Part shown: positions 6,614 to 36,521 of the stretch, piece by piece
Numbering within the stretch: position 1 is the stretch's first letter
Layout: each line of letters starts with the position of its first letter
Assembly (NCBI GenBank): GCA_964419595.1
Contig: CAYQQI010000001.1
Location: forward strand, 1-50,189
Source: an uncultured Candidatus Saccharibacteria bacterium
Lineage (GTDB): Bacteria > Patescibacteriota > Minisyncoccia > Phycocordibacterales > UBA2100
Direction of reading: 5' to 3'
Length of the DNA: 50,189 nucleotides
Program-made: the position numbers and the translations under genes
The notes under the pieces: model-generated
What the model saw: only the letters and a program-made list of their open reading frames with translations
Told to the model about the DNA's origin: nothing
The model's database searches: none

Positions 6614-6810
6614 GGCCTGCCATCTGTACGGTGTTTGTACTCCCGCAGCAGGTGGATGATGACCGCGATAAACACGATCACCCACAGGATTTGCCACATC
6701 ATCTTGATCAGAGTGAGATGCTCCGATAGGAATACCTGCATGGGTAGGAGGTGTGCCGGTGCATTTCCGGTGAGCGCTTTCAGTGCAATGATCGGCGTCG
6801 ATGTATTCAT
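6610..6810 (-). CDS. small single-pass membrane protein coupled to the HTTM gene (copy 1)
   Basis: MNTSTPIIALKALTGNAPAHLLPMQ...WQILWVIVFIAVIIHLL is homologous by eye to 25404..25592 (MNTPLLILKDLQGNDPVSLTPLQ...). It occupies the same position downstream of an HTTM-like gene. Confidence 0.65.
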   Translation of the reverse strand: MNTSTPIIALKALTGNAPAHLLPMQVFLSEHLTLIKMMWQILWVIVFIAVIIHLLREYKHRTDGRP

Positions 6811-8244: not shown

Positions 8245-8300
8245 GTGAATGTTGCTTCGTTTGAAGTCCTCAAATACCCCTCGTGCTAAACTCGATTGCA

Positions 8301-9668
8301 ATGTGGACGAAGATACAGGACGTGTGTGCACGAGTCACCTTGGAAAAAAGATACTGGCGCTCGGACATATTCTGGACGCAGTCACTATTTTTCAACACAG
8401 CAATCAAGTTCATCCCATTCTGGATGGATTGCTGGGCGCTAAAAAAGAGCCAATATTGGCCCTATTCGCAGATCGCTGCTTTGCGTGAGCGAAAACTGAG
8501 AATGCTCTTGCAAGGCGCTTCGACGCTTCCGTTCTGGAAGCAGTATTTCGAAAAGGGCGGGATCGATCCCGGTCGCGCAACAGTTTCGGAACTGGAGCGA
8601 ATACCAGTGACCGACCGGCGGGATTTTTCGGACCTGCAAAGTGCCGAATACATCATCGCATCTCTCCTACCGCGTTCATTTGCAGATCAGACATCGGGCT
8701 CCACAGGCAGCCCCTTTCGCTTCTATCACGACAGAGGAATCGTGTTGCGTTCCTTTGCTGTACGAGAGCGTATGTTCCGAACTGCGGCAAAGGGGATGAG
8801 GTACCAAATAGTATCAATGCGCGCTAAGGAGCGGATCGGAATGGCCTTTTTTAAGCATTACTTCTTTTACATACGAGGCTCAAACAGCATCAGGCATCGT
8901 CTCCCGCATCTCGTTGATGTCGTGAACAAACTGTATCGCGAAGGAATCGTGCTGTACGCAATTGCCTCCTGGGTCATGACGCTTGCCAGAGAAGTTGAGC
9001 GGGCGGGAGTAACGATCCCGTTTCAGGCCGTGATCTCAACGGGAGAATCGATGCTACCAAAGGAGCGCACGTACGTAGAGAAAGCACTGCAGACCAAGCT
9101 TTTTCTCGTGTATGCATCTCAAGAAGGGAATTGCATGGCATTTGAATGCGAGCATCAACGGTTTCATATCAACGAAGAAGAGATCTATTTTCAGATCGTG
9201 GATTCCTCCGGGGCTTCGCTCCCGTACGGAGCCGTAGGAAAAGTGGTTTTTACATTGCTGGACAATCGTGTCATGCCGTTCATTCGATACTCCAACGGAG
9301 ATATCGGCTCTATCTCTGACGAACAATGTCCGTGCGGACGAAGGCTTCGTACAATAACCCTTCTCGGAAGGGAGAAAGACCTTATACAGCTACCGGAAGG
9401 CAGGGAAATTGTGTTGATGGACTTGGCACCGATCTTCGACTACTACTTCGACGCTATACAGCAGTACCAGATAGTTCAGAAAAGTACGAAGCATTTTCTC
9501 ATACGTGTTATCGTGACCGCTCAATTCGAAGCGAAACAGGAACGGCTCACCGCCCGCCTCATGCGTGTCCTACACCCTGCGGTTAGGATCGACTGGGAAG
9601 TAGTAACTCATATACCGCATAGCGAAAGCGGTAAGGCCATATATTTCGTGCGAGAGAGTATCGAGTGA
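8301..9668 (+). CDS. PaaK / coenzyme F390 synthetase-like adenylate-forming enzyme (copy 1)
   Basis: DQTSGSTGSPFRFY is a P-loop-like AMP-binding motif. IRYSNGDIGS..CPCGR and the overall length fit the PaaK family. The start is uncertain (GTG 8283, ATG 8301 or ATG 8424). Confidence 0.7.
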   Translation: MWTKIQDVCARVTLEKRYWRSDIFWTQSLFFNTAIKFIPFWMDCWALKKSQYWPYSQIAALRERKLRMLLQGASTLPFWKQYFEKGGIDPGRATVSELERIPVTDRRDFSDLQSAEYIIASLLPRSFADQTSGSTGSPFRFYHDRGIVLRSFAVRERMFRTAAKGMRYQIVSMRAKERIGMAFFKHYFFYIRGSNSIRHRLPHLVDVVNKLYREGIVLYAIASWVMTLAREVERAGVTIPFQAVISTGESMLPKERTYVEKALQTKLFLVYASQEGNCMAFECEHQRFHINEEEIYFQIVDSSGASLPYGAVGKVVFTLLDNRVMPFIRYSNGDIGSISDEQCPCGRRLRTITLLGREKDLIQLPEGREIVLMDLAPIFDYYFDAIQQYQIVQKSTKHFLIRVIVTAQFEAKQERLTARLMRVLHPAVRIDWEVVTHIPHSESGKAIYFVRESIE

Positions 9669-9671: not shown

Positions 9672-10556
9672 TTAGTATTTTGAATCTACCGAAAGCTGTT
9701 TCTCGAATTCTACGACCGGCAGACGATAGATCTGATCTTTCCCGTATTGCGCTCTCACACCCCCCTTCGCTACCTTGGTAAGTGACAAGATCTTCTCATA
9801 TCCGTGGTACTTGGGTCGCGGTTTTAAAAGCGGGAATTCCCACTGAAAAACGAGTCGTTTCAACGTGTAGACACTGGTTCGCTGCCTGAAGACGTCCGGA
9901 TGCTGCAGCGCGAATTTGTTCGCCGGCAACCGCAGATACGACAGGCAGAGCTCGGGCGTGCTGAACATAAAATACGGAACATGTCCCTGCGTGTTGCGCT
10001 CGATCCAGTCAAACGGGACCTTGTACCCCGCATTAAATTCAAGGAATATATCATCGGGCGCGAGAGTAACTTTTTCGCGGTCGATATCGTAGTATTGTTC
10101 GCCGCCCGCGATGACCGCGATGCCCCCCAAACTCTCAGCGATCTCCATCAATTTGATCTGCAGGTACCGTATCAGGTAAAAGGACACGAATCCTTTTTGG
10201 AGATACGCGGGGATCTCGTTCCGGAAAAAATTCTCCATGTCGACCGAGACGATCTTCTGGTGCACGCCGTGTTTCCTGCACCAGTTTCGCGCGTACGCTA
10301 TGTCGTGCTCGTTGGTACCGCTCGCGTGCCGCAGGGTGAGAACAGAGAAATTAATACCCTGGTCAAAGAATGCATGACACATAACCTCGCTATCAATGCC
10401 ACCCGAGGAACAAAGCCACAGTGGTCTGTCTGCACGGGAGGCGATAGCGAGCGCGGAGGCACGCATCTCCTCTTTCCAGCTTGCGGGCTTTCGCGTGCAC
10501 GGGCGAAATCGGGTGCAGAATGATGAGTCGGTACGCTTGAATTCGATCGCCGGCAT
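9672..10556 (-). CDS. PP-loop ATP pyrophosphatase superfamily protein (adenine-nucleotide alpha-hydrolase fold)
   Basis: LWLCSSGGIDSEV is an SGGxDS PP-loop motif near the N-terminus. ATG 10556 was chosen; GTG 10565 is an alternative. Confidence 0.7.
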   Translation of the reverse strand: MPAIEFKRTDSSFCTRFRPCTRKPASWKEEMRASALAIASRADRPLWLCSSGGIDSEVMCHAFFDQGINFSVLTLRHASGTNEHDIAYARNWCRKHGVHQKIVSVDMENFFRNEIPAYLQKGFVSFYLIRYLQIKLMEIAESLGGIAVIAGGEQYYDIDREKVTLAPDDIFLEFNAGYKVPFDWIERNTQGHVPYFMFSTPELCLSYLRLPANKFALQHPDVFRQRTSVYTLKRLVFQWEFPLLKPRPKYHGYEKILSLTKVAKGGVRAQYGKDQIYRLPVVEFEKQLSVDSKY

Positions 10557-10564
10557 GGCCACCA

Positions 10565-11872
10565 CTATACCGCACCGGATTCATCGAGAACGATCTTGGA
10601 TTTACCCCGAGGCAGTCGGGGGATAGATGCTACGGCTGCGAGAATGACATTAACTTCCGGTCCCATGAGCGCTTGAATCTTTTCGCGTATTTGGCCCTCG
10701 ACGAGCGTATTGAATGCCGGGGTCGGTATGATTCTCACCTCGAGCTCAGTATCCGATCCCTTGACGATCAGATATCGGAAAATGAACGGCGAGAACATTT
10801 GCATAAGTTCACTGAACTCAAATTGGTGGAACCTTCTCGGACCGAATGTGAGCATGGCCGAGTATCGCCCGGTGATCCACACTCGCTGCGACTGAAGCCC
10901 GCATGCACATTTCTCCCACGAAACATGCCCGCGATCCCCGGTATCGTAGCGAACGAACGGCATTTCGTAGTTGTACAGGTCGGTGATCACGATCTTGCCG
11001 CTCATTCCCTCAGGCACAGGATCACCGCTGCTATCGACTATCTCTACAATGCACGACTCTACGTACACGTGGAACCCGTCATGCGCACTACAATCCATAC
11101 CGATCGTACCGAGCTCCTCCAGACCGTAGCGATTGTAGACAGTGCAGTGCAATTGTTCTTCGATCAGTTGACGCGCGGCAGGGTAGAGCCGCTCACTTCC
11201 TGACACGGCGTACTTTGGTCGCGGTCCTGTACCGCTCTTTTGCACTTCGAGCGCGAGCTCTTCAAGGAATGACGCATGGCCCTCGATCACATACGGCCGG
11301 AACGCGATAAGCTCTTCGATGGCCGCTTTCGGGTCCGTGAACAGTTGGTCGGCAAATATAACCAAAGCATTCTCTCTCACGAGCGGCAACACGCGAAGGT
11401 ACGCAACACGTGCCCATGTGGTACTCATATGCCAAAGCCGCTCCTCCATAAGGAATCGGTACTGCATAAAGTCCACGTACAGGGGCATTCCTGTCGTGAT
11501 AAGTCGTCGGAGCGCAGTAAAAGGCATTCCGCTCGTGCCGGAGGTTGTGACCCACTTACCGACCGGCGGGAATGTCGAGATCGTATATTCGGATACCGAT
11601 CGACCCCGGAAGGTATCTTTATTCGTGACCGGGAGTTTTGCGAGGTCGTCGATCGTGACAATACCCGGAGAGCCGACGCCACGTGTTTGTAGGGTATTTC
11701 TGAACAGGATGATGTTCTTCTCCAGTACCGCAACTAATTCCCGCAGTTTTTTCTCCTGCCATCTTACAATGTAGGCACGATCCTTTTTATAAACGTTCCT
11801 AAAACGGTAAAAATTGTAGAAGTAACGTAGCTTTTGTCGAACAGTAAGACGTTTCAGATAGTTCAGAGCCAT
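10565..11872 (-). CDS. PaaK / F390 synthetase-like adenylate-forming enzyme (copy 2)
   Basis: VTTSGTSGMPFTAL, VRYDTGDRG and CACG motifs are present. It aligns by eye with 8301..9668. Confidence 0.75.
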   Translation of the reverse strand: MALNYLKRLTVRQKLRYFYNFYRFRNVYKKDRAYIVRWQEKKLRELVAVLEKNIILFRNTLQTRGVGSPGIVTIDDLAKLPVTNKDTFRGRSVSEYTISTFPPVGKWVTTSGTSGMPFTALRRLITTGMPLYVDFMQYRFLMEERLWHMSTTWARVAYLRVLPLVRENALVIFADQLFTDPKAAIEELIAFRPYVIEGHASFLEELALEVQKSGTGPRPKYAVSGSERLYPAARQLIEEQLHCTVYNRYGLEELGTIGMDCSAHDGFHVYVESCIVEIVDSSGDPVPEGMSGKIVITDLYNYEMPFVRYDTGDRGHVSWEKCACGLQSQRVWITGRYSAMLTFGPRRFHQFEFSELMQMFSPFIFRYLIVKGSDTELEVRIIPTPAFNTLVEGQIREKIQALMGPEVNVILAAVASIPRLPRGKSKIVLDESGAV

Positions 11873-11881: not shown

Positions 11882-13516
11882 TTATGCAGGTCGCTTTAAG
11901 CAATAGAGCTCGTTCGCGACCGTACGCGCAAAGATGCAGTGCGACGCTTCGTTGTAGGCAATTTTACTCATGATGCGCTCACTTGCCTGGAAGTATCCCA
12001 CCTGTGTCCCGTGTTCCGCACTCACCTCATACAGACATCCGTCATTCGAACCGATAAAAACGGACGGTCCCACGACGACAGGGGAGCCGAATATGCGCCC
12101 GCGGGTAAGAAACTGCCAGCGAAGCTTTGAGGAGCCGATATCTATTGCGTACAGTGTCTTATCGAGCGAGGCCACGTAGACCGTGTCGTTGTGCACGAGC
12201 GGTATGGAGTAGAGCGCCGCGCCCGTCTCATACGCGTAAATAGGCATGCCGTCGCGTGCACCGAATGCGTAGAGTTTTCCGTCCATCGACGTGAAGAACA
12301 CGATCCTCTGTTTCGCAGCATAGGCCGGCGCAACTTTAAGATCTCCTTGAGTGGCGTTTCGCCAGCGCAATGCACCGGTGATGGCATCGTAGGCATAACT
12401 GATACCGTCGTTACTACCGATCGCGACCATGCTTTCCTCTTTTATATAGAGCGGTGAGCCGTGCGTCATAGCCGCGGTTGTGTGTTGCCAGCGCATGCGG
12501 CCCGACAGCATGTCGAGCGCGACGATGCCGCCTTGCTTACGGAAGAGTCCGAATTCTAATCCGATGAACAGCAATCCGAGTTCGGGTGCCAGTGAAGGAG
12601 ATGAACCGATCCAGTCCGCATCATCGTAGCGCCACTTTTCCTTGCCTGTCCTGGAATCCAGTGCGTAGACGACTCCGTCGTACGCACCGAAATACAACAC
12701 ACCGTTGTGTATCGCAGGCGTTGAAAGAATACCTTTCCCGTCGGAGTGCTTTCCCACGTTGAACTCCCACACGACGTCACCCGTTTTCTGATCGAGTGCT
12801 CGCATGGTGCCGTCGTCACATCCGAGGAACACAAGTGAGTCGTCAATGACAGGTGCGGATTTCTGAACCACAAGGTGATAGCTCGGGTTCGGACCGGTAT
12901 AGCGCCATACGAGTTGAAGTTGAACGTTCGTTTCGATTTTTTTCTCCTGCAGGAGCGGTATACCGAAATCTTCAAGGGTGAATATGTGTCTGATCGAGGC
13001 GCCCCTGGTGCTCAATCGTTGGTAAGACTCAGGCTCACGGAATGCGAGTAGGACGAATACGTCGGTGACCGAACAGCCGGCGTCGGAAAGAATAGTCATC
13101 TGCTTCTCGAGGGTGGATCCGCTGTTGATGAGGTCATCGACGAGGACAATCGGCTCATCGGTAAGAGTACCCTCTATCTGTTTCATCAATCCGTGTCGTT
13201 TACGCGATTTTCGTATGAAAAAACCGTTGATAGGCGTTCCGCGTTCCGCTCCTTTCATCACGATAGCCGCGATGAGCGAGATGCCCGCGGTTTCCATTGC
13301 GCCCACTTGGAACGGGAGTTTGTCCGCGTATTGTTCCCAAAATATCTCTGCGTAACGGTTCAGCCATTTTGCCTGCAGCATGAGGGCGCGGAAATCAAAG
13401 AGCCACTCCTCGCGTTTGCCCGTCACCTCCGAACCTACGATCACGGCACCCTCTGAGCGCTGCACGAATGCGGTTGATTCGATTGCGCGTCGCAGGTCCT
13501 CGTATCCGTTCGTCAT
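11882..13516 (-). CDS. type I phosphoribosyltransferase (OPRT-like) fused to a PQQ-like beta-propeller repeat domain (copy 1)
   Basis: The N-terminus has LFDFRALML, GISLIAAIV, FFIRKSRKRHG and the PRPP loop IVLVDDLINSGSTL. The C-terminal ~350 aa has repeated ...G.VYFG..DG.LYALD..TG...W modules. Confidence 0.75.
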   Translation of the reverse strand: MTNGYEDLRRAIESTAFVQRSEGAVIVGSEVTGKREEWLFDFRALMLQAKWLNRYAEIFWEQYADKLPFQVGAMETAGISLIAAIVMKGAERGTPINGFFIRKSRKRHGLMKQIEGTLTDEPIVLVDDLINSGSTLEKQMTILSDAGCSVTDVFVLLAFREPESYQRLSTRGASIRHIFTLEDFGIPLLQEKKIETNVQLQLVWRYTGPNPSYHLVVQKSAPVIDDSLVFLGCDDGTMRALDQKTGDVVWEFNVGKHSDGKGILSTPAIHNGVLYFGAYDGVVYALDSRTGKEKWRYDDADWIGSSPSLAPELGLLFIGLEFGLFRKQGGIVALDMLSGRMRWQHTTAAMTHGSPLYIKEESMVAIGSNDGISYAYDAITGALRWRNATQGDLKVAPAYAAKQRIVFFTSMDGKLYAFGARDGMPIYAYETGAALYSIPLVHNDTVYVASLDKTLYAIDIGSSKLRWQFLTRGRIFGSPVVVGPSVFIGSNDGCLYEVSAEHGTQVGYFQASERIMSKIAYNEASHCIFARTVANELYCLKRPA

Positions 13517-13581: not shown

Positions 13582-14859
13582 TTAATAGCTGTATCTGCCG
13601 CTCTTCCGAATGGCGGGGAGTTCCTGCGTATACTGAGCGAATTTAGAGATGCACAACTCCTTCGCGTCAGCATGCATGCATGCATTCTCTGAGGGGGCGA
13701 CATCAAGTCCGTCGTAAGAAAAGAACGAGTAGAAACAGGAATCCTGAAGCGTTTCGGAGCGTATTGCTGTGCAGTATGTAAGTGCTGTGCCCGGTCGTCC
13801 GTAACTTCTCAGTATCCGAACGTGACCGTGGGCACAACTCTCTCTATCGGTCTCATTCGGTAGCTCTGCGCATATGCTCACAAGTCCTTCGGTTGTGGTG
13901 CCGGTCTGTTCCACGTAAAAAGGGAGGAATCTTCCAATGCCCTCGAAGCAATACGCTCGCTCCGGCATACCGAATGTCTCGCATGCTTGAGTCGCGATGC
14001 GCAATTTCTCCGCACGCTCTGTAATATTCTTTCTTGCGAACAATATCTCTTGGTAGGGGGGGAGGTACTTGAAGCACGGATGCCGGTACCGTTTTTCATC
14101 AGGGGCGATCGTATTACAGGGATACCCGTAATCATCGTCAGGAACGTCTGCCAATGACGGAACGGACTCACTCAATACCAAACTATTTGGCACGCCGCCG
14201 ATGCCTTGCATATAGACGCCGGTCACGCATTGGTCAAGCATTTCACCGGTCGCAATCGACCCGCAGCTTTGCGTGGCCGCTTTAAAGTTGCCGGTCAAAG
14301 AATAGAGAATGTGACCGATACCGTGACAGAGCTCCGTATTGGCAATACCCAGGCAGAATTTCCCCGCGACCGCCTCGATCTGTTCCGTATCCATATGCGC
14401 GATATCGACCTCGTCGACGCGTATACCGAGCCGCTCTACCATGACTTCGCCCAAAGCTCCGTGTAAACAACCGCCAAAGCATTGGTTGCTGCAGCGGGAC
14501 AGTGCGTGCTCGAGGTTCGGATCAACACGATATGTTTCCTGCCCGATAACATGTGCAACGCTGTGACAGTCACCATAGGGCTTCGGCATGGACCTCGAAC
14601 TTACGTCGTTCAACAGTTCGCTCGCGGTGCGATTTTCGAGCGCAGACCGGACGATTTCATGTGTGCAGGCGATGAGTTCTGATGAGCCCTGCGAGTCCTC
14701 TGCACAGCTTTGCAATCCGGTCGTAAAGTTTCGTTCCATGCCTCGAGCACGGTATGAGTCCAGCTCTCCGATACAGAGGATGGCGAACGATACCAGCAGG
14801 CACGCGATGAATATCCGGACCGGGATGCTCCACGCACGAGGATGAAGGGGGAGACTCAT
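13582..14859 (-). CDS. membrane-anchored Cys/His-rich repeat protein (copy 2)
   Basis: The TM anchor is VRIFIACLLVSFAILCIG. Motifs include CHSVAHVIGQ, CFGGCLHGA, CHGIGHILY, QCVTGVYMQ and YCFEGIG. ATG 14859 was chosen; GTG 14865 is an alternative. Confidence 0.75.
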   Translation of the reverse strand: MSLPLHPRAWSIPVRIFIACLLVSFAILCIGELDSYRARGMERNFTTGLQSCAEDSQGSSELIACTHEIVRSALENRTASELLNDVSSRSMPKPYGDCHSVAHVIGQETYRVDPNLEHALSRCSNQCFGGCLHGALGEVMVERLGIRVDEVDIAHMDTEQIEAVAGKFCLGIANTELCHGIGHILYSLTGNFKAATQSCGSIATGEMLDQCVTGVYMQGIGGVPNSLVLSESVPSLADVPDDDYGYPCNTIAPDEKRYRHPCFKYLPPYQEILFARKNITERAEKLRIATQACETFGMPERAYCFEGIGRFLPFYVEQTGTTTEGLVSICAELPNETDRESCAHGHVRILRSYGRPGTALTYCTAIRSETLQDSCFYSFFSYDGLDVAPSENACMHADAKELCISKFAQYTQELPAIRKSGRYSY

Positions 14860-14870
14860 ACACACCGATG

Positions 14871-15617
14871 TTAATCCTCAGCAACGTTCCCGGCATGAAT
14901 CGATGTGTCCTTACAAAGCGTTATCGTGTGAATCGATTGTTCGTTCTCCTCGTCGAGATCAAGGAGTTCCGCAATGACCGCATCGTCGAATCCGGCATAG
15001 GGGCGAACATTCAACCGGAGCGCACTTCCCACCAGCAGCATGTTTTCACTCATGTGTCCGGCCTCAAGCAGCGTATGGATATAGGACAACTCACCGTACT
15101 TTGCAGATGAGCGCTTCCATACGCCGGTGAAAACGATCAGCCCGGACAGTGACAACCACTCCGGGTGTCTGGCGATACTTTTCATGTCGAATTGCGGCGG
15201 GAGGTCCCACAAGCGCTCGAGCGCGTGTTTCGAGGGATTATAGTGGAACACCGCAGGACTTTGCGATTCCACCGCGTTTGATATCAGGTATGACTCAACC
15301 GGATAGAGTGCTCCGCCGGAAGGATAGTTTCTATTCGTCACACCGTCGCGTTTTCGAAGTGCAGAGCCGAAGAGTGTGCCGAGTTCCCGAAGTGAGATAG
15401 CGATGCCGGCATCGCCTTCGTGTCCGGAGATCCGGCTATCCAGTGCCTCCTGAAGTGTTGTTGTGAGTACATCCGGCTGCGGGAGCGAGATGCATTGCAT
15501 ACGAGGATATGCTTTGTGGACCCCTCGCGGGACCTCTTCCGGTCGGTGGGTTGCACCTTTTCTGGTGAGGCGAGTGCGCCGCAACTCCATATGCAAGCGG
15601 GATAAAAAAGAGCTCAT
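14871..15617 (-). CDS. SagB-type dehydrogenase (nitroreductase fold), pair 1
   Basis: YPSGGALYPVESYL, FHYNPSKHALERLW, SAKYGELSY (Lys-Tyr motif) and LLEAGHMSENMLL are present. Its ATG overlaps the YcaO stop (ATGA at 15617..15614). Confidence 0.85.
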   Translation of the reverse strand: MSSFLSRLHMELRRTRLTRKGATHRPEEVPRGVHKAYPRMQCISLPQPDVLTTTLQEALDSRISGHEGDAGIAISLRELGTLFGSALRKRDGVTNRNYPSGGALYPVESYLISNAVESQSPAVFHYNPSKHALERLWDLPPQFDMKSIARHPEWLSLSGLIVFTGVWKRSSAKYGELSYIHTLLEAGHMSENMLLVGSALRLNVRPYAGFDDAVIAELLDLDEENEQSIHTITLCKDTSIHAGNVAED

Positions 15618-17053
15618 GAGAACGGGTGCGGACTCTCCGCGAACGGTTCTTTCCGTGGCGTATAACCCAGCGCTCGCGGCACCTCGTGCCAGCGCTCTCC
15701 GCCGAATTGCCGGCTGGCTTCGTTGAGGTACGTTGGAACCATCTCCGGCACAATGACCATTTCAATATGAAGATCCGTCGGGTTTTTCGCAGAATGGGTC
15801 AGGGGGACCGAAACAACATTGAAATGCTTCGTGCGACACCACTGCACGATGCGTTCAAGATTCTCCTCTATCGTATCGTTTTCCCACTCTTTCGCTTCGA
15901 CCTCTATCTCCGGACCCTGCACCAGAAATTCAAGACGCTTGGCGTTCTCAGGTTCTCCCCAGTAGTACAGACGCTCCCGGTGTCCGATCGTCTCGATTGG
16001 TGTGGTCGTATCCCATGATTTTCCTTCATTCTCCCAGATGTGGTAGCTGCGAAACGCACGTATAGATTCGCACATCGCTTTCTCTATTGCAGTCGGCAGT
16101 GAGCGGTGAGCACGGATACCAAAACTAAACCGCGGACTCTTCCCGCTCATGTCCTCGAGTACGACTGCTACCGCGTGCGTCGGTGCGTCGGTTTGAAGCC
16201 GGATGACATGCGGTTTCAGTCTGTATCGTTCGCACTGTGACACTGCCCGGCCAAGTGACGGGTTCAACCTTCTCAGCGTATCGAGTGCAATGCGGGGAAG
16301 CGTGAGTTGATTCAGCCACATGATCATATAGGCTTCTCGTTCGATCACTTCCAGGATGCCGGCAAGCCGCGCGCCGCACTGCGTTGGCCACGTAGCCAGA
16401 CCGTTTGTATTTTGTTGCCGAATGATCGGTTCATTCGGTGCACACATGTGACGCCGACTGATACCGCTCACAATTTGGGCAGGAACGAATGTGTTTTCGC
16501 TGTGCGTGAGCGAAATGCCTTGGACCCACAGATACGCTGCGTCGGGTCGCAATATTCGTGCAGCGTGCCTCGTTCGCTGCGCTTCCGTGAAACCGGTGAT
16601 ATTTTCCGGGGCGATGGATGGGCCTATGGCCGTAATTTCCCGGTACGTGGCAATTGTCGGGTTTACGAAATAGTCGTTCTGCGTCATCCAAATGTAGCGC
16701 TCGAGTGCCTCCGAAGTAGCGGCATACAACGCGTTCTCGTCACTTTCCCAGGTCGTGCCTCCGGTCTGGTGTGCGGTATGTTCATTGCACAGGGCATACC
16801 AGGCTTTCGTCGGCGGCTCGTCCGGGGCGCGGTATACCCGTCCGAATTCCGAAATTACCCCGTGGTCTTTGAGAAGCTGTGCGCGCTGAAGGGGCTCCAG
16901 TAGGTCGGACCGACCGTAGGGAATGGTGCGGGAGTCCTTTACTACCCGCACGTCCAATCTTTTCTCTATATGGTCCGTAAAAGCCCGCAGGGCTCTTTCT
17001 TTAATATTCGAGCCGTTGAGTAGTTCAGTGAACCGTACGGCATCAAAAATCAT
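15614..17053 (-). CDS. YcaO-family cyclodehydratase-like protein, pair 1
   Basis: Trimmed to MIFDAVRF. SEALERYIW, TNGLATWPT and LEVIEREAYMIMWLN are YcaO hallmarks. The C-terminus is ...ESPHPFS. Confidence 0.85.
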   Translation of the reverse strand: MIFDAVRFTELLNGSNIKERALRAFTDHIEKRLDVRVVKDSRTIPYGRSDLLEPLQRAQLLKDHGVISEFGRVYRAPDEPPTKAWYALCNEHTAHQTGGTTWESDENALYAATSEALERYIWMTQNDYFVNPTIATYREITAIGPSIAPENITGFTEAQRTRHAARILRPDAAYLWVQGISLTHSENTFVPAQIVSGISRRHMCAPNEPIIRQQNTNGLATWPTQCGARLAGILEVIEREAYMIMWLNQLTLPRIALDTLRRLNPSLGRAVSQCERYRLKPHVIRLQTDAPTHAVAVVLEDMSGKSPRFSFGIRAHRSLPTAIEKAMCESIRAFRSYHIWENEGKSWDTTTPIETIGHRERLYYWGEPENAKRLEFLVQGPEIEVEAKEWENDTIEENLERIVQWCRTKHFNVVSVPLTHSAKNPTDLHIEMVIVPEMVPTYLNEASRQFGGERWHEVPRALGYTPRKEPFAESPHPFS

Positions 17054-25593: not shown

Positions 25594-26901
25594 TCAGGAC
25601 GAGAACGGATTCGCAAAATAATTTTGAACCGGATACCCGATGATCTCAGGACCGTCGGCAGGCAATTTTATCCACCGATTGTGCGAAAACGGTTCGTAGG
25701 AGAGCACGCACGCGTTTGCAGTATCAACGATACGATAGAACGGACCGCCGTCTATAGAATGGTCAAACGTCCATTCGACTCGTTCGATCACGGGATGCCG
25801 CATGCACGCTTCGTGAATATGGTACCAAAATTCGTACGGATCGCACCGCTCTTGTGCGGCAGGAGACTCGATCGTATCGGCTATCACGGAGCCGTCGCGC
25901 ATATGGGTCCGGGTATTCGACACACACTGGTGGTTCGCTTCGAACATGAACAGACCGTACATATTTCCCTCGAGTGTCATACGATGATCGCCCGGTATCA
26001 ACAGGGGGATACTTTGCGGGATCAAGAGCACAGCGAGAAACGTCCATCCCGCCACAGACTTGCGATCGAGCGGCACCGCGCTGTACCGGTATCCGACAGC
26101 GAACAGAACGACGAGTGCGGTGAGTGCGATAGAAGGAAAACGGAAGCCGACAAAGATACCCGAATAGAGGTGAAATGTCGCGAAAAAGACGAGTGCGCCG
26201 AGACGGAGTCGATTGTCAGAAGAAAGGAGGAACCACGAACCGATCATCTGCATGAATATCACGACGCCCGTAAATATCGGCGCCACGCTGTTTCCGAATA
26301 TCGGCAATCCCGCGGAGAGGGAGGTAAAATATGTTCCCATGATCCAACCTGCATCGATCTTCACGCTGCTTGCGAGGAAGTAGAGCCACACGAACGTGAT
26401 CCGAAGGAAAGCGAGCTTGTGCGGGAACAAAAGCAGCACCGAACCGAGGTACAGGTCGTAGTAGCTGTAATTTTCGGCGAAGTGCATGGAGAACAGAAAT
26501 ACGGTCGCCGCTTTGCATATCCATAAGAGGAGCAGTAATACATGCGCAAGCACCCACTCTTTTTTATACATGAGCACCGCAACCAAGAGGCACAACAGAA
26601 AGATCCCCATCGAGAGTATCTGTTGGCTGTAGGCATCGGGGAATGTCCCGAGGACATAGAATTTCCAGCAGCTCTGAAAATACGGCCAGCACAGGTGAAC
26701 ATTTTCCGTGACGGCACGGGGCGACGTTATGGCAAACAATGCGAATCGCTGAAAACCGAGAAAGAACGAGAAAAGAATGACGCCGAAGACGATCTTAAGC
26801 GTTTCGTTCTGCTCGATCTCAGCGATCGAAAAGAAACGTCGGTACCATTCGAGCACGCGACGCTCGATCACTGACGTAAATATATGATGACGAAACGGCA
26901 T
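25594..26901 (-). CDS. HTTM / vitamin K-dependent gamma-carboxylase-like membrane protein (copy 2)
   Basis: ASSVKIDAGWIMGTYF, YGLFMFEANHQC and WTFDHSIDGGPFYRIVD are present. It is collinear with 6820..8244. Confidence 0.6.
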   Translation of the reverse strand: MPFRHHIFTSVIERRVLEWYRRFFSIAEIEQNETLKIVFGVILFSFFLGFQRFALFAITSPRAVTENVHLCWPYFQSCWKFYVLGTFPDAYSQQILSMGIFLLCLLVAVLMYKKEWVLAHVLLLLLWICKAATVFLFSMHFAENYSYYDLYLGSVLLLFPHKLAFLRITFVWLYFLASSVKIDAGWIMGTYFTSLSAGLPIFGNSVAPIFTGVVIFMQMIGSWFLLSSDNRLRLGALVFFATFHLYSGIFVGFRFPSIALTALVVLFAVGYRYSAVPLDRKSVAGWTFLAVLLIPQSIPLLIPGDHRMTLEGNMYGLFMFEANHQCVSNTRTHMRDGSVIADTIESPAAQERCDPYEFWYHIHEACMRHPVIERVEWTFDHSIDGGPFYRIVDTANACVLSYEPFSHNRWIKLPADGPEIIGYPVQNYFANPFSS

Positions 26902-26906: not shown

Positions 26907-28400
26907 TTAGGGGAACGGATGGGGGAGCGGATTCAGTGTATCAACCGCTTTATGGTGCAGCATTCTGAATTCATCGAGTCGTGCGGAGCGTAGTGTTGCA
27001 TACGACTCAACGAGATAAAGCGGGAAAAGTCGCGGGACGATCGTTCTCACCACGTGATACCCGAGCCGCATCAGGATCGGATGCTCCACATCGTACGTAT
27101 AGAGTTCGTATCCGGCCCCGAGCCTTCGGAGCTGCGTGCATACCCACGAGAGTTGTTCTTCTGGCGAGAGAATGTGCTCTGTTTTTTTGAACACCGACGC
27201 AGATGATCGTTTTGTTCCCCGAATGAAAAAAGAAAACGCATCCAACATACGTGCACCCTTCCACAGCGACAGGCGCTCGTTTCGGCCGATCGAGCGGTCA
27301 GAGAAGGGCGGAGCGCTCTGGTCGTGAATATACGGCTCTGCGCTCACCAGGCGCAACAGTGCGATATTTGCTTCGCTCAAGGCTCCGATGTACACGTCTT
27401 TTTCCGAGAAACCTGACCCGCCGCCGACGGCGAGTGCGGGCTCTCCTTCTCGCGCATCTATCAAAACACACATGACAGCCGGGATCTCCACGTTCGTTGT
27501 TATATCGAGAAAATGAACGGTGAGGCCGAGCCGCTCGTACCTATCGATCATGGCGCGTGTTTCGCTATCGCGGATCGACTCGTTCGGGATGCGATGGGGC
27601 GGAACCGAATTGAGCCAGTGCATAAAGAAACCGTCTCGTTCCACGAGTTCGAGCACGCCGGAAAGTATCGCTTCCGTTCTTGTGAAATGACCGGCACCGC
27701 CGCTCGTGGTCGATTGATACAGTGTCGGCTCAAGGGAGTCGAGTTCGTTACGGTACGACCAATAGACAAGTTGTGCCGGTAGGAGAGTCGGAGATCCCGT
27801 CCCGTATGCGCTCCCTTCCACCCACGCGAATTCGGAATCAATACTCCGTTTGAATTTTGGGAACGATTCCTCCTGCCACGGAGCGAAACCGTTGAGAGAG
27901 AAAATATCGAGCAGTGAATGCATGGTCGATAGGTCACGAGGTGTACCGTACGTAAGCGCTGCTTTGCGGTACAGCGTGAGCAGATGACGCTCGAGTATCT
28001 CACCGACTGACTTTGACATTGCATCCTCAAATGAAGCCGAGCTGCCATAGCCGGTATATTCCACCTTGCGCCCGTCGGTTTGTGACTCGTCCTCGTACGG
28101 CAGTACTCGTGCCGAGTACGTACCGGGAAAGTCGTTGCGTGCGAGCGGAAATGAAAATGAAGGGGTATCGATTATCTTTGCACGGTGCAGCTCATCGAGG
28201 AGGAGCTGCCAATTCAGCGGCATCCCCGTGGTGAGCACTGCTTCAGCGCCGCGAAAACGATCGAATCGATGCATGGTTTCGACGATACGCGCGCGCAGAC
28301 GGTCACGCGAGTCGAACAGCGACCGAAATCGCCCGCACGGTTGAGCAATTTCGTGCATCGCGTCGCCCTTTGATTGCAGACGAGTATGGGGATAGGGCAT
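26907..28400 (-). CDS. YcaO-family cyclodehydratase-like protein, pair 3 (divergent type)
   Basis: SVGEILERHLL, TTSGGAGHFT and VLELVERDGFFMHWLN are present, and the C-terminus is ...PLPHPFP (PxPxP-like). The ORF extends to 28754, but that would overlap the divergent SagB-3. Candidate starts are 28508, 28400 and 28358. Confidence 0.75.
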   Translation of the reverse strand: MPYPHTRLQSKGDAMHEIAQPCGRFRSLFDSRDRLRARIVETMHRFDRFRGAEAVLTTGMPLNWQLLLDELHRAKIIDTPSFSFPLARNDFPGTYSARVLPYEDESQTDGRKVEYTGYGSSASFEDAMSKSVGEILERHLLTLYRKAALTYGTPRDLSTMHSLLDIFSLNGFAPWQEESFPKFKRSIDSEFAWVEGSAYGTGSPTLLPAQLVYWSYRNELDSLEPTLYQSTTSGGAGHFTRTEAILSGVLELVERDGFFMHWLNSVPPHRIPNESIRDSETRAMIDRYERLGLTVHFLDITTNVEIPAVMCVLIDAREGEPALAVGGGSGFSEKDVYIGALSEANIALLRLVSAEPYIHDQSAPPFSDRSIGRNERLSLWKGARMLDAFSFFIRGTKRSSASVFKKTEHILSPEEQLSWVCTQLRRLGAGYELYTYDVEHPILMRLGYHVVRTIVPRLFPLYLVESYATLRSARLDEFRMLHHKAVDTLNPLPHPFP

Positions 28401-28506
28401 GCGCGCATGCACCGCATTCTTCCAATATCGATTCGGTTCCACGCGTGAAAGTATAGCAATATCGCTCGCTTGCGCCCGCAAAGGGGGAGAGTACCATTGA
28501 GCTTCC

Positions 28507-29235
28507 ATGGATTTTTCCGAGTTCTTCCACATCTCCTCAAAGGACGCCACGGGTGCGGGTGAACTTCGGATACCGCTTGATCCCAAAGAGTGGCCCGAAT
28601 CATGGAGCACGATAGAAACGAAAACATATACGCGTTTGCCGAAGATCTCTCTTCCCGAGACCGACCCGAAAGCGGACCACTTTGCGCTCATTCGTGATCG
28701 CAGATCCCGCTTTGCGTTCACGAGCGAACCGTTGACGCTAGAGGCAATGAGCACGTTGCTCAGGTATTCATGCGGTCTCTTTTTTCAAGACGATGTAGCC
28801 ACACACAGGGCGCAACCCTCCGCGGGCTCGAGGTATCCGATCGAACTCTATCCGATCGTACTTCGCGGGAACGATGCGCTCGCGTCCGGCGTGTACCATT
28901 ACAACGTTGATCATCATCGTCTTGAGCTGCTCTGGAGCCGCACATTTTCGCCGGAAGAGAAGCGGGCACTCGTAACGCACGAGAATATCGACGACGCCGC
29001 GTGTCTGCTCGTGATGAGTGCCACCTTCGATCGAACGAAACGTAAATACGGCGAGCGAGGATACCGATACATCATGCTTGAGGCGGGACATATCGGGCAG
29101 AATGTATGTTTGGCGGCAACCCACCTCAACCTCTCGTGCTGTCCGCTGGGAAATACACGCGACGGCGCTATTGAGACACTGCTGGATATCGACGGTGTGA
29201 ACGAGTCCGTGGTCTACGCAACGCTGATCGGGTAA
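28507..29235 (+). CDS. SagB-type dehydrogenase, pair 3
   Basis: GSRYPIELYPIVL, YHYNVDHHRLELLW, KRKYGERGYRYIMLEAGHIGQN and CCPLG are present. Confidence 0.8.
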   Translation: MDFSEFFHISSKDATGAGELRIPLDPKEWPESWSTIETKTYTRLPKISLPETDPKADHFALIRDRRSRFAFTSEPLTLEAMSTLLRYSCGLFFQDDVATHRAQPSAGSRYPIELYPIVLRGNDALASGVYHYNVDHHRLELLWSRTFSPEEKRALVTHENIDDAACLLVMSATFDRTKRKYGERGYRYIMLEAGHIGQNVCLAATHLNLSCCPLGNTRDGAIETLLDIDGVNESVVYATLIG

Positions 29236-29620: not shown

Positions 29621-31273
29621 TCACGCGGATCTTTTCTTTTGAATACGGTAGATCTCATTGGCGAATGTCGGCAAAAATATTGCATGCGTCGTGGGGTTGT
29701 AGGCGATCACGTTCACGATGCGCTCCGCAGCCTGAAAAAAGCCTCTCTCTTCGCCGGTTTTCGCGTCAAGCTCATACATACGACCGTCATTGCTGCCGAT
29801 ATAGACCGACGAGCCGATTATTGCAGGGGATGCGAATATTCTTCCCATTGTCCTGAATTTCCATCGAATTATGCCGGTCGCCGCACCGATGGCGTAGAAC
29901 TTCTTATCGAGCGATGCCACGTATACCGTGCCCTCGTGTGCAAGCGGGTTCGAATACACCGCTTCGGGTAACTCCACCGCATGTACGAGCGCCCCGGTCT
30001 TTGCATTCAATATATAGAGATGTTTGTCGAACGAGCCAAAACAAACGGTACCGGCTGATTCGTCGAATGAGAAACCTGCACGAACCGCATCTTGTGTCGC
30101 GAATTCCCAGAGCTGGGATCCGGTTTTTGCGTCGAATCCGTACACGGTCCCGCTATTACTCCCGCACACCACAACTGAGAGTTTTTCCGAGACAGAAGGT
30201 GAGGAATGCACCAAGCCGTTCATGGTTTGCTGCCATACTTTTTTCCCGGTCTCGGCGTTCACCGCGAGCAATCCTCCCCGTTTATTCCACAGACCGAATT
30301 CCAGGCCCACGTACACGAGGCCGAACTTTTCCGATACTGCCGGTGATGAGCCGACCCAGTCGGCCTCCATACTTACCCAGGCACGGGAACCGTCACGCGT
30401 CTTCAGCGCGTACAAATTGCCGTCGTACGCACCGAAATACACGAGTCCGAGTTTCTTTGAGAGCGCAGGGGACGAGAAGATGCGCTTGTGCCCGTCACCG
30501 AATTGTATGAGGTATTTCCATACGACTTCGCCGCTTTCCTGATCGAGTGCCCAAAACATGCCGCTGTCCGACCCGAAGTAGAGCTTCGTGTCATCCAATA
30601 CAGGAGCAGATTTCGGGATCACATAAAAATAGTTCGGGTCGGGACTTGCGAATTTCCAGGTGCTCTCGAAGACTGACAGTTCTCCCACGGGTTTGGAAAC
30701 GGGGATGGGGGGATGTGCATCGGGAAAATCTTCTATCGAGAAAAGCGAGTGAACCTCGATCCCTTTTTCCCGGAACAGTTCGTAGAAAGAATCGTCTCTG
30801 AGACGAAGCACTACACAAATAGCACGCACCTCCATGCCGCGCTCTTCAAGTGCCGCGATCTGACGGAGCATGCCCTTACCGGAATTCACGAGATCGTCCA
30901 GTAGTACGACCGGCTCATCAGTAACGACTCCTTCGATCATGTTTTGCATTCCGTCCTTATCCCGGGATTTACGCATGAAAAAACCGTTCATGTTCGTGCC
31001 TGCATCGTGCGCTTTCAACACCACGCCCGCGATCAGGGGAAGCGACGCGGTTTCCAATCCGCCCACTTGAACCTTTCCGTACGGTGCCACGCGTGCGTAC
31101 ATCTCGATTGAGAGTGCGTCGAGCACATCGCTTTGTAACAGTACTCGTCGAAAGTCGAACATCCACGATTGCCGCTCACCCTCACCGGAGTAGAACGCGG
31201 CCTCCTTCGAAGTGACGAATACGCGCTCTTGCAATACCGACTTTAAGAACTGCATACGTGATGACGTTTCCAT
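29621..31273 (-). CDS. type I phosphoribosyltransferase::PQQ-like beta-propeller fusion (copy 2)
   Basis: Trimmed to METSSRMQFLK. MFDFRRVLLQ, FFMRKSRDKDG and the PRPP loop VVLLDDLVNSGKGM are followed by propeller repeats (LVYFGAYDGNLYALKTRDG...). Confidence 0.75.
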   Translation of the reverse strand: METSSRMQFLKSVLQERVFVTSKEAAFYSGEGERQSWMFDFRRVLLQSDVLDALSIEMYARVAPYGKVQVGGLETASLPLIAGVVLKAHDAGTNMNGFFMRKSRDKDGMQNMIEGVVTDEPVVLLDDLVNSGKGMLRQIAALEERGMEVRAICVVLRLRDDSFYELFREKGIEVHSLFSIEDFPDAHPPIPVSKPVGELSVFESTWKFASPDPNYFYVIPKSAPVLDDTKLYFGSDSGMFWALDQESGEVVWKYLIQFGDGHKRIFSSPALSKKLGLVYFGAYDGNLYALKTRDGSRAWVSMEADWVGSSPAVSEKFGLVYVGLEFGLWNKRGGLLAVNAETGKKVWQQTMNGLVHSSPSVSEKLSVVVCGSNSGTVYGFDAKTGSQLWEFATQDAVRAGFSFDESAGTVCFGSFDKHLYILNAKTGALVHAVELPEAVYSNPLAHEGTVYVASLDKKFYAIGAATGIIRWKFRTMGRIFASPAIIGSSVYIGSNDGRMYELDAKTGEERGFFQAAERIVNVIAYNPTTHAIFLPTFANEIYRIQKKRSA

Positions 31274-31337
31274 GGATACACAGTATACGACGTGGTCGCA
31301 ATGTGCTCTGCGGTGCGGATGGTACGATATACATGTG

Positions 31338-31766
31338 ATGAATCGCACCGTAGGTATCGTGCTCGCAGCTGTGCTCGTGACCGCACTTGCTATCTACCTG
31401 ACGCCGCTTAAGCATGTCGCACTCATTGAGCCCACGATCAACGACATCGATGCCGTGGAGTTCCAGGCAGCCCTTAAGGCGGATCCTGATCGCTACATCT
31501 TTCTTGATGTCAGGCCCGCAGAAGCGTACAACAAACAGCATGCCGAAGGTTCCGTGAGTGCACCCGTGCATACACTCTTCGATCTCCGCCACACGCTTCC
31601 GAAACACGGTAAGGAGATAGTGCTCATCTGTAGCGGGGGACGGGCCTCGGGCGTCGGGTACGGCTACCTCGAACATTTCGGTTTTTTCAACATTGCGCGT
31701 ATCGAAGGAGGCATTGAGGCGTGGCTCACGGCGGGGTTACCCACAGTGCCGGCGCCCGCAAAATAG
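31338..31766 (+). CDS. membrane-anchored rhodanese-domain sulfurtransferase-like protein
   Basis: Trimmed to MNRTVGIVLAAVLVTALAIY. IFLDVRPAEAYNKQHAEGS and the active-site loop LICSGGRASG are present. Confidence 0.7.
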   Translation: MNRTVGIVLAAVLVTALAIYLTPLKHVALIEPTINDIDAVEFQAALKADPDRYIFLDVRPAEAYNKQHAEGSVSAPVHTLFDLRHTLPKHGKEIVLICSGGRASGVGYGYLEHFGFFNIARIEGGIEAWLTAGLPTVPAPAK

Positions 31767-31792: not shown

Positions 31793-32077
31793 ATGGAGCA
31801 ACTGCTGTTTCGAACAATTCGCGTCGCATCGTTCCTCGGACTCGCCGCACTCGCTACACTTCTCACCATGTTTTTCGGTACCTCGCGCTCTGCGAGCAAT
31901 CTGTCCTCCGATGGAGGTTTTACGGGATTCGGCATTCAGTGCGCAAACGCCGATGCGCCGGTTGTTGACACGGGCTGCACCGGCGACGCCGGTTGCGCCG
32001 GTTGCGCCGGCTCAGATTCAGGTTGTTCAGGAGGATGTGACAGCGGCGGCGGCGGTAGCAGCGACGGCTGCGCGTGA
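31793..32077 (+). CDS. candidate RiPP precursor 2: Sec-like signal/anchor plus Cys/Gly/Ser/Asp-only core
   Basis: Trimmed from ORF 31721 to MEQLLFRTIRVASFLGLAALATLLTMFFGTSRSASNLSSDGGFTGFGIQCANADAPVVDTGCTGDAGCAGCAGSDSGCSGGCDSGGGGSSDGCA*. It shares the GG.xG(Y/F).I...A.AP...CTGDA junction with precursor 1. Confidence 0.6.
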   Translation: MEQLLFRTIRVASFLGLAALATLLTMFFGTSRSASNLSSDGGFTGFGIQCANADAPVVDTGCTGDAGCAGCAGSDSGCSGGCDSGGGGSSDGCA

Positions 32078-32084
32078 TTCTCAT

Positions 32085-33185
32085 ATGTCGAAATACATCA
32101 TCGGGGTAGTGATCATACTTGCGGCAGCATTTTTTGGCGTGTGGTACTACATATCCCTACCCCGACCTCTGCAGGATCCCTTCTCCACGCTCTCGATAAA
32201 AAGTGAGAAATTTGCCGAGGCAAATACACTTCATTTCTCCGCGAAGACCCCCGAAGATCAGGCCAAAACCGAGGCTGCATACAAAGCGGCACTCCTCGAC
32301 GCTGATTCTTCGGCCGAGAAGAGTATGGTTGAATTTCGGATCGCTCTGACCGTTGAGCAGCAAGGTAGGTATGTCGAGGCCATTCAACAGCTCAAAATGA
32401 TCGCGGCGAACACTCAGTATCCCGCATTTACACGTGCCTACGCGATACAGGAACTGGGTCTCATGTACTACAATTACGGTTCCCCGGAGATCACAAAAGA
32501 AGTGTTCAGTACACCACCGTACGACGCAATGCAGGCGGAGAGCGGCGCGGTGTCATATCGCCACGTCTTTGAATATGCCTCGTCGATCTATCCGCTCGCT
32601 GCTTCCGAGAGCTTTATTGCGTATTTATATGCAAACGACATGATGAAGCTGTTTAACGCTTCGACTGTTCGACCGCTCACGCCCGAAGAGCAAACTTCGT
32701 ATGAGAGCGCGAAACTCGAGGTTGAAAGGCGACTGGCGAGCGCGGAGCGTGATATCGCGCGACTCGATAAAATGGCGCAAGAGCGATACTACCGTTCGTA
32801 CGCACTCCTGCGCGTTGCCATCGTGCGCGGGCAATTGGCCAGGATGAAGCTTGGTACCGATGAAGCGGCAGAAGCTGCCTTCCAAAAGACCATCGCGATC
32901 ACCGACTACGAAAGCGGCGACGCCGAATCAGCGTTCCCGCGTTTGCACTACGCCTTTTTCCTCTCCAAGCGATACGGTGCCGAGCGAGCGACGGAGATCC
33001 ATGATCTCTTGAGCGCAATTTATACGACGATGGACAAGCGAGCGTATTCCCCGATCATGAAATATTTTGAGGGTGAACGAAAGAGTGTCTACGGAGCAAA
33101 AGCGGATCTCGCGGCGCTCGCCAAAATAGACCCTCAGTTCAAAGTTGCACTCATAAACCTCGGTTGGATAGAGAGCGACTTCTAG
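32085..33185 (+). CDS. membrane-anchored helical protein following precursor 2 (paralog of 17498..18610)
   Basis: Trimmed from ORF 31911 to MSKYIIGVVIILAAAFFGVWYY. It occupies the same position relative to its precursor as 17498..18610. Confidence 0.65.
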   Translation: MSKYIIGVVIILAAAFFGVWYYISLPRPLQDPFSTLSIKSEKFAEANTLHFSAKTPEDQAKTEAAYKAALLDADSSAEKSMVEFRIALTVEQQGRYVEAIQQLKMIAANTQYPAFTRAYAIQELGLMYYNYGSPEITKEVFSTPPYDAMQAESGAVSYRHVFEYASSIYPLAASESFIAYLYANDMMKLFNASTVRPLTPEEQTSYESAKLEVERRLASAERDIARLDKMAQERYYRSYALLRVAIVRGQLARMKLGTDEAAEAAFQKTIAITDYESGDAESAFPRLHYAFFLSKRYGAERATEIHDLLSAIYTTMDKRAYSPIMKYFEGERKSVYGAKADLAALAKIDPQFKVALINLGWIESDF

Positions 33186-36441: not shown

Positions 36442-36487
36442 GCCTCAACCCAAGTCCGCATATGGACCAATGGCAGGCACCGAGTGG

Positions 36488-36514: not shown

Positions 36515-36521
36515 GAAAACT

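Follow-up and report, generated by a model that had tools for sequence, protein, structure and literature searches.

Azoline-forming YcaO proteins are generally thought to require an E1-like or ThiF-like partner that carries a leader-binding element. Clusters that pair a YcaO gene with a nitroreductase gene have been reported in the candidate phyla radiation (CPR), and the genes mentioned in the accessible portions of that report are those for YcaO, nitroreductase and peptidase, with no mention of the gene that is described here (Sharrar et al. 2020, PMC7298704). The stretch of DNA analysed here, called the window, comprises positions 1 to 50,189 of contig CAYQQI010000001.1 (GenBank assembly GCA_964419595.1) from an uncultured Candidatus Saccharibacteria bacterium. 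It contains an azole-peptide-like cluster of a family reported so far only at the level of its YcaO and nitroreductase genes, and this cluster has an unprecedented third component, a protein in which a phosphoribosyltransferase (PRT) domain is followed by a β-propeller and which is referred to below as the PRT-propeller. The window encodes two copies of it. There is strong reason to believe that the PRT-propeller functionally belongs to peptide maturation. Its part in this process can be proposed tentatively: it may be an enzyme that uses PRPP (5-phosphoribosyl 1-pyrophosphate) and has a built-in docking platform, acting in the maturation of peptides that resemble RiPPs (peptides that are ribosomally synthesized and then post-translationally modified).

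Both open reading frames (ORFs) lie where the initial annotation had placed them, on the minus strand. Copy 1 (11882..13516) encodes 544 amino acid residues (aa) from an ATG start and consists of a domain like that of orotate phosphoribosyltransferase (OPRT) at residues ~1-190 (nucleotides ~12947-13516), followed by an eight-bladed propeller at residues ~200-544 (nucleotides 11882-12919). Copy 2 (29621..31273) has 550 aa from the ATG at 31273; its longest ORF reaches a GTG at 31348, and the ATG is taken as the start because the N-termini of the homologs align there. The two copies are full-length paralogs, with 41% identity from end to end (BLASTP, E = 1e-156). The N-terminal domain had been read as an OPRT-like type I PRT, and this assignment holds. 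The pyrE model TIGR00336 matches residues ~30-185 of the two copies with E = 1.5e-18 and 4.4e-15 (67.2 and 55.9 bits). In the Pfam family Pribosyltran (PF00156), whose cut-off is 26.3 bits, copy 2 scores 27.0 and copy 1 scores 21.8, and the fold is backed by sequence matches in the PDB and by the secondary structure of an AlphaFold2 (AF2) model. The closest solved relatives found by sequence search of the PDB are actinobacterial OPRTs, namely 2p1z (E = 1e-11) and the Mycobacterium tuberculosis OPRT (MtOPRT) 5hkf (E = 6e-9).

The C-terminal ~345 residues (~200-544) match PF13570, Beta-prop_ACSF4, with 172.3 and 190.5 bits, which passes the gathering cut-off of 133, and they also match PQQ_2. 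The AF2 model, built on 25 homologs, has a predicted local distance difference test score (pLDDT) of 90.5 and a predicted template modelling score (pTM) of 0.86, and shows the PRT fold followed by ~31 strands that form eight blades. The best Foldseek matches of this model in the PDB are the designed eight-bladed propeller Cake8 (template modelling score (TM) 0.95 on the target) and BamB, in agreement with the BamB/PQQ type that had been annotated; with the whole protein as query the search is swamped by propeller matches and is uninformative on the PRT domain. The likeness to quinoproteins is one of fold only, since TIGR03075 gives 82-85 bits against a cut-off of 480, and PF01011 matches the propeller only in fragments of 25-38 residues of a profile with 595 positions. 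Orthology with BamB is likewise rejected: TIGR03300 gives 126-132 bits against 285, and the N-terminus is a PRT domain with no lipoprotein or other signal peptide. A PRT of anti-phage defence (PADLOC) was considered and rejected as well, because copy 1 matches with only 19 bits (E = 2e-4), over the PRPP loop only, and copy 2 has no match. The initial annotation knew of no characterised enzyme with this fusion, and none appeared among the NCBIfam equivalogs, the solved structures or the papers reached by full-text literature searches. The phosphoribosyltransferase in a paper on a Desulfovibrio YcaO (PMC7774982) is the upp marker only and is irrelevant to the fusion.

The residues that would handle PRPP were compared in 146 aligned PRT domains, taken as cluster representatives at <=50% identity. 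The motifs quoted in the initial annotation, FDFR, RKSRK..G and VLVDDLINSG, do occur and form the family's most conserved columns. In the structure of MtOPRT, Arg38, Arg94, Lys95, Lys98, Glu120 and Asp121 contact PRPP, and Lys98 is the lysine of the catalytic loop (PMC5430920). In a HMMER alignment to 5hkf, D127 and D128 of the PRT-propeller align to Glu120 and Asp121, R102, K103 and K106 to Arg94, Lys95 and Lys98, and R/K43 to Arg38. In the PRPP loop, IVLVDDLINSG, D127 is found in all 146 domains, D128 in 145 and G133 in 134. The flexible catalytic loop with its Arg-Lys-x-x-Lys pattern is present, R102 occurring in 146 of 146 domains, K103 in 143 (with Arg in the other 3), R105 in 138 and K106 in 141. 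The hood residues R/K43 and D41 are kept in 146 and 145 domains, E115 in 144 and G116 in 145, while Q70 and E75 are invariants specific to the PRT domains of this family. Degeneration of the PRPP loop or of the flexible loop was not found in these 146 domains, and since the PRPP-contacting residues are near-invariant the PRT domain is not a degenerate pseudo-enzyme. It looks like a working PRPP enzyme with an acceptor other than orotate.

Conserved PRPP-binding residues would also be expected if the protein were a sensor of PRPP or nucleotides that gates maturation or export by the nucleotide status of a host-dependent symbiont. The PRT fold has been adapted to sensing in PurR and PyrR, and PyrR is among the weak PDB matches of the PRT domain. 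Such a role is nevertheless improbable for the PRT-propeller, which has no DNA- or RNA-binding domain, conserves a catalytic-loop lysine that a sensor would not need, and is encoded inside biosynthetic operons and fused to tailoring enzymes.

Relatives of the PRT-propeller are encoded at at least 286 loci or species genomes, out of 185,579 GTDB species genomes. Nearly all belong to Patescibacteria; a few, with 37-40% identity, occur in metagenome-assembled genomes (MAGs) of Acidobacteriota and Nitrospirae. More than 120 homologs are full-length at 52-72% identity, and the PRT domain finds matches with E < 1e-30 in 172 clusters (50% identity), almost all with a length of 530-580 aa and the same architecture. 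The initial annotation had stressed the duplication within one peptide cluster; there are indeed two paralogs in the island, and the protein is not specific to it, being a member of a family of hundreds that is found mostly in Patescibacteria.

Gene neighbourhoods were compared with the window's own proteins as queries against six-frame ORFs from the fetched loci. In 51 of 81 non-redundant loci the PRT-propeller gene has YcaO and SagB no more than 10 kb away. Flanks of at least 8 kb on either side are available for 32 loci, and 23 of these have a YcaO within 10 kb. In 17 of these 32 the order is collinear, YcaO-SagB-(polytopic membrane protein)-PRT-propeller, often with overlapping stop and start codons, and independent gene calls for two relatives with 57% identity give the same order. 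In most cases an ortholog nearer to copy 1 comes last in a YcaO-SagB operon, and one nearer to copy 2 is divergent from a rhodanese/precursor operon. The gene order of the window agrees with what had been annotated: copy 1 is part of the YcaO1 operon and copy 2 is divergent from the operon of the rhodanese and precursor 2. The fusion was not found to be common away from YcaO and peptide genes; its linkage to them is tight, and the PRT-propeller family tracks the type of precursor more faithfully than it tracks YcaO.

This linkage bears on the question of whether the protein could be a housekeeping or salvage PRT, for orotate or another base, that carries a propeller and lies near YcaO incidentally. 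The nearest relatives of its N-terminal domain in sequence and structure are genuine OPRTs, as such an explanation would have it. It is nonetheless hardly credible, given that a single island contains two diverged paralogs, each of them next to a precursor module of its own, and that an operon linkage to YcaO/SagB or precursor genes is kept across hundreds of genomes. The family is also rare among the species genomes, and its Acidobacteriota carriers presumably have a pyrE of their own. Finally, the domain scores under the cut-off of the pyrE equivalog, and the Thr that contacts the base in OPRT has become Asn.

The enzymes next to the PRT-propeller are those of an azole cluster. The YcaO proteins of the island match PF02624 at E = 1e-41 to 1e-50 and score 165-178 bits with the SagD-family model TIGR03604, under its cut-off of 219 bits, and all three nitroreductases pass the SagB-family model TIGR03605 (105-133 bits, cut-off 78.4). 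YcaO1 (15614..17053, minus strand, 479 aa) is a bare heterocyclase-type YcaO domain. In a Foldseek comparison its AF2 model (pLDDT 92.4) aligns with the C-terminal ~460 of the 747 residues of LynD (TM on the query (TMq) 0.71), and the next structural matches are MusD, TruD and archaeal thioamide-forming YcaO proteins. Since the model covers only this C-terminal part, YcaO1 is without the N-terminal ~290-residue portion of LynD, which is E1-like and contains the RiPP recognition element (RRE). A hidden RRE or E1-like domain at the N-terminus of YcaO1 is rejected, as the ~60 extra residues there form only two helices and two short strands in the AF2 model. Scans of ~35 island proteins found no ThiF, E1-like or TfuA domain, although very divergent RREs could escape such scans. 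Among the conserved cytoplasmic proteins, only the PRT-propeller is a candidate for the third subunit. In a large group of YcaO/SagB clusters a bare YcaO is combined with this propeller-bearing PRPP-type enzyme as the product of the third conserved gene.

It is possible, if doubtful, that the PRT-propeller fills this place as a recruitment or scaffold subunit, which takes over the function of the E1-like 'C protein' or of an RRE and presents the core peptide to the bare YcaO, to SagB and to other tailoring enzymes. It would then bind the signal-like leader or the AHADAP region of the precursor, its PRT domain would bind PRPP or a nucleotide structurally or allosterically, and the peptide would remain unmodified by it. 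A YcaO without an E1-like or RRE domain, in an island where scans detected no gene for such a partner, is consistent with this role. So is the position of the PRT-propeller gene as the third conserved gene of the YcaO-SagB operon, to which it is apparently translationally coupled. BamB-type propellers are protein-docking platforms. A purely structural role is hard to square with the near-invariance, at <=50% identity, of the catalytic-loop Lys and Arg and of both Asp residues of the PRPP loop, and in the AF2 model neither the PRT domain nor the propeller has the winged-helix fold of an RRE.

The longer relatives add evidence to both sides. In these the module is fused to a formyltransferase, a Stf0 sulfotransferase, an Asp/Asn hydroxylase, a radical S-adenosylmethionine (SAM) enzyme or a HlyC acyltransferase; a nitroreductase-PRT fusion of the 'Rosetta stone' kind had been expected, and the fusion partners are these other tailoring enzymes instead. 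A module that is fused to such enzymes and serves clusters of different chemistry behaves like an RRE, which favours the scaffold. In the radical-SAM fusion P0220, on the other hand, it is the PRT domain that is conserved (37% identity, keeping RKKRK and VDDLMNSG) and not the propeller, which is scarcely recognisable. This suggests that the PRT domain is the part of the protein that cannot be dispensed with. The genes after the formyltransferase fusion encode a rhodanese and a DsbA-like protein, as they do with copy 2 in the window.

Two further arrangements of these domains were seen. At 1195-1773 of locus L088, a short contig, the gene that directly follows an aminotransferase of the DegT/DnrJ/EryC1 type encodes a complete PRT domain of this family on its own (P0196, 192 aa), so that the PRT domain can occur without the propeller. 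At L003 17432-19893 and L001 3703-6112, respectively, an ATP-sulfurylase/adenylylsulfate (APS) kinase with a sulfotransferase, or an Asp/Arg hydroxylase with an HTTM protein, are encoded as separate genes; the sulfotransferase and Asp/Asn-hydroxylase domains of clusters of this type are those that are fused to the PRT-propeller elsewhere.

The presumed substrates share a layout of their own. They have a basic N-terminus, one hydrophobic helix, a linker of ~15-25 residues, the sequence (V/I)AHADAP and a core rich in Gly, Ser, Cys and Asp that is sometimes also rich in Tyr or in poly-Asp. A motif [AV]xA[DE]xP, after the hydrophobic helix and before a Gly/Ser/Cys/Asp-rich tail, was found in 37 of 84 sources, and genes for such precursors are normally divergent from the YcaO or the PRT-propeller gene. 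The sequence of the AxA|D junction resembles that of a signal peptidase I site, and an exported product would agree with the cluster's DsbA-like, TPR and membrane proteins. In the window, precursor 1 (17167..17478, plus strand, 103 aa) has the basic N-terminus, the hydrophobic helix, VAHAEAP and the Gly/Ser/Cys/Asp-rich core, and is divergent from YcaO1. Precursor 2 (31793..32077, plus strand, 94 aa) has the hydrophobic helix and a CANADAP motif, followed by the core VVDTGCTGDAGCAGCAGSDSGCSGGCDSGGGGSSDGCA.

Precursors also accompany the PRT-propeller at loci that have no YcaO or a different chemistry. In a complete Kaiserbacteria chromosome (L062) the cores are free of Cys, for example YAQSAYYGQGGYGWWGGDGGDGDDD, with no YcaO up to 10 kb away. 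In a MAG of Sulfotelmatobacter (L080) a fusion of an Asp/Asn hydroxylase with the PRT-propeller is followed directly by a DG-rich precursor that ends in CDGDGDGDGGDGDGGGGDGGCNSCPCS, again with no YcaO. This acidobacterial pair (L080 1130-14246) is flanked by a transposase helix-turn-helix, a resolvase and a phage-type integrase, and for this reason is suggested to be a mobile cassette. At L086 1-16586, on a contig of 1.5 Mb, a PRT-propeller with 36% identity and the radical-SAM-PRT fusion P0220 lie among eight radical-SAM genes and HxsD, and a precursor of the same layout with (SHG)n repeats is encoded directly upstream of the PRT-propeller gene.

Taken together, these features suggest a dedicated cytoplasmic component of a RiPP-like maturation system that would be conserved across many Patescibacteria and whose products would be Gly-, Ser-, Cys- and Asp-rich peptides for export. 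In the window, each copy of the PRT-propeller would serve one precursor/YcaO/SagB module, in which YcaO and SagB would turn Cys and Ser into azol(in)es. With its eight-bladed propeller the protein would bind the precursor or a partner enzyme, and the OPRT-like domain would use PRPP and move the 5-phosphoribosyl group to a nucleophilic group on the peptide or on an intermediate of the pathway, with both PRPP turnover and a peptide acceptor being presumed. Catalysis is favoured because the catalytic residues are near-invariant and because P0220 retains the PRT domain rather than the propeller. Phosphoribosylation of a peptide by the PRT-propeller, which the initial annotation had raised, is a plausible hypothesis. 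That 5-phosphoribose passes from PRPP straight onto the ribosomal peptide, at a side chain, at the nitrogen of a heterocycle derived from the backbone or at an amine, is a more doubtful suggestion. More speculatively, the occasional fusion with a PurN-like formyltransferase, combined with an amide-activating YcaO, may hint that a ribosylated heterocycle is built on Gly-rich peptides, by analogy with early purine biosynthesis. An enzyme and a scaffold are not mutually exclusive.

Several observations weigh against PRPP chemistry on a peptide. We know of no precedent for the phosphoribosylation of a peptide from PRPP; the literature searches found none, and the acceptor is not deducible from the sequence. 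The residues of OPRT that contact orotate, Thr128 and Arg156 in the numbering of the E. coli/Salmonella enzyme, are kept only in part: at R160, the aligned counterpart of the orotate-binding Arg, 89 of the 146 domains have Arg and 15 have Lys, and Asn replaces the Thr at the position of E. coli Thr128 in 130 of them. The MAFFT alignment with E. coli PyrE used here is trustworthy in its C-terminal half only, the region of the pyrophosphate loop being misaligned. Because R160 is variable and Thr has given way to Asn, the acceptor pocket differs from that of OPRT and is unreadable from sequence. Both PRT domains of the window (67.2 and 55.9 bits) score under the TIGR00336 equivalog cut-off of 106.8, and the relative at L086 apparently has a Glu at the position of K103. 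In 9 of the 32 loci with full flanks there is no YcaO within 10 kb. Fusions with many unrelated tailoring enzymes are, moreover, the pattern of a recruitment module such as an RRE, and for this reason the data can be explained without catalysis on the peptide.

The remaining genes of the island complete the two modules. The minus-strand operon that has copy 1 as its fourth gene begins with YcaO1 and continues with SagB-family peptide dehydrogenase 1 (SagB1; 14871..15617), which has the nitroreductase fold and scores 106 bits with TIGR03605 (cut-off 78.4). Between SagB1 and copy 1 lies a membrane-anchored Cys/His-rich protein, called family Y here (13582..14865). Immediately downstream of copy 1 are an adenylate-forming ligase like PaaK, F390 synthetase and CapK (10565..11872) and, as the last gene, a protein with an N-terminus weakly like a PP-loop ATPase (TilS/MnmA; 9672..10565, E ~2e-3); both are on the minus strand. 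The family Y protein has a paralog at 5522-6697, also on the minus strand, and both carry repeated CHxIGH and CxxG motifs that are possibly related to metals or thiols; neither has a family match in profile scans. The PaaK-like ligase has a paralog on the plus strand (8283-9668), and two such ligases with a weakly PP-loop-like protein recur beside PRT-propellers of the copy 1 type at L003, L008 and L010. A membrane-anchored helical protein after precursor 1 (17291-18610) is the counterpart of the one after precursor 2 (31911..33185, plus strand, likely start 32085).

The operon of precursor 2, on the plus strand, starts with a membrane-anchored rhodanese (31212..31766, likely start near 31338), which is divergent from copy 2. 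After precursor 2 and the helical protein it encodes a DsbA-like thioredoxin (33187-33864) and a TPR protein (33869-34669). It ends with a secreted-looking protein of 420 aa (34689-35951) that has repeated CP..G and Cys-Pro-rich modules; this protein has homologs in 25 loci and no family match in profile scans. On the side of copy 2 away from the rhodanese operon are YcaO3 (26907..28754, minus strand), SagB-family peptide dehydrogenase 3 (SagB3; 28507..29235, plus strand, TIGR03605 133 bits) and a polytopic membrane protein, called family X here (25594..26901, minus strand). The start codon of YcaO3 is uncertain: its longest ORF begins with a GTG at 28754 and overlaps SagB3 on the opposite strand by ~250 nucleotides (28507-28754), and with the Pfam domain beginning at residue 237, translation probably starts further downstream. 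The family X protein has a paralog at 6820-8331 on the minus strand; both contain a C-terminal domain with Cys residues and match nothing in Pfam or NCBIfam. Elsewhere, homologs of family X adjoin the PRT-propeller gene or sit between it and SagB, and locus L001 has a membrane protein like HTTM/DCC1 in place of family X. A third pair, YcaO2/SagB2 (22626..24799, minus strand), is without a PRT-propeller of its own.

The whole island, of ~31 kb, lies between rpsJ (S10, 5097-5459, plus strand) and the genes for L3, L4, L2 and S3 (36414-41187, plus strand, starting at ~36.4 kb), and appears to split the usually contiguous S10 operon. The related cluster L003 likewise abuts L3/L4. An island of this size is a big investment for the small genomes of Patescibacteria.

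If the PRT-propeller is catalytic, it would bring PRPP chemistry into the maturation of ribosomal peptides. Transfer of phosphoribose straight onto the peptide would amount to an undescribed modification and a new class of RiPP-like core enzyme, working alongside YcaO, radical-SAM or hydroxylase chemistry in hundreds of bacteria that have not been cultivated. As a scaffold, the protein would represent a new means of substrate recognition, other than the RRE, that spans YcaO, radical-SAM, hydroxylase, sulfotransferase and acyltransferase pathways. The combination of a PRT-propeller with a signal-like leader, AHADAP and a Gly/Ser/Cys/Asp core also provides a handle for mining a large unexplored family of peptides in Patescibacteria.

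Each part of the system resembles a known one and departs from it in its own way. With OPRT (PyrE), above all the short actinobacterial type (M. tuberculosis 5HKF/5HKI, Corynebacterium diphtheriae 2P1Z), the PRT-propeller shares the type I PRT fold, the hood (W/Y)x(F/V)D(F/L)R, the flexible loop RKSxKxHG...IEG and a PRPP loop in which four hydrophobic residues precede (D/E)D....G, and all PRPP-contacting residues of MtOPRT have conserved counterparts. It differs from OPRT in its score (56-67 bits against 106.8), in the Asn that replaces the base-contacting Thr, in the family-specific Q70 and E75 and in an orotate-binding Arg that is only partly conserved; it also has a propeller and sits in operons for peptide maturation, not pyrimidine operons. 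The propeller is like those of BamB and the YxaL type, with eight blades and a Foldseek TM on the target of 0.8-0.95, and as in ACSF4 (AASDH) it is attached to an enzyme acting on an activated small molecule. Unlike BamB, the PRT-propeller has no lipoprotein or signal sequence, and since its PRPP-using domain is N-terminal it is probably cytoplasmic. The cluster resembles the azole synthetase complexes for linear azol(in)e peptides (McbBCD, SagBCD) and the fused heterocyclases (LynD, TruD) in its heterocyclase-type YcaO, its SagB-family dehydrogenase, its precursor rich in Cys, Ser and Gly and its third conserved gene in the place of the C protein. It differs from them in that the third component is the PRT-propeller, not an E1-like or RRE protein, and in that the precursors have a signal-like hydrophobic leader and the AxA|D junction. 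The likeness to RRE or PqqD-like proteins is one of distribution only, a single module being found beside or fused to YcaO, radical-SAM, hydroxylase, sulfotransferase and acyltransferase proteins; a PRT domain and a propeller stand in place of the winged helix, and the residues of an enzyme active site are kept. HxsBCD, the bioinformatically defined His-Xaa-Ser system, is approached by the L086 relative, which sits with HxsD, eight radical-SAM genes and the (SHG)n precursor, whereas radical-SAM and Hxs genes are absent from the window. The elements common to L086 and the window are the PRT-propeller and the precursor layout, in which a basic N-terminus, a hydrophobic helix and an Ala-rich junction lead to a core of low complexity.

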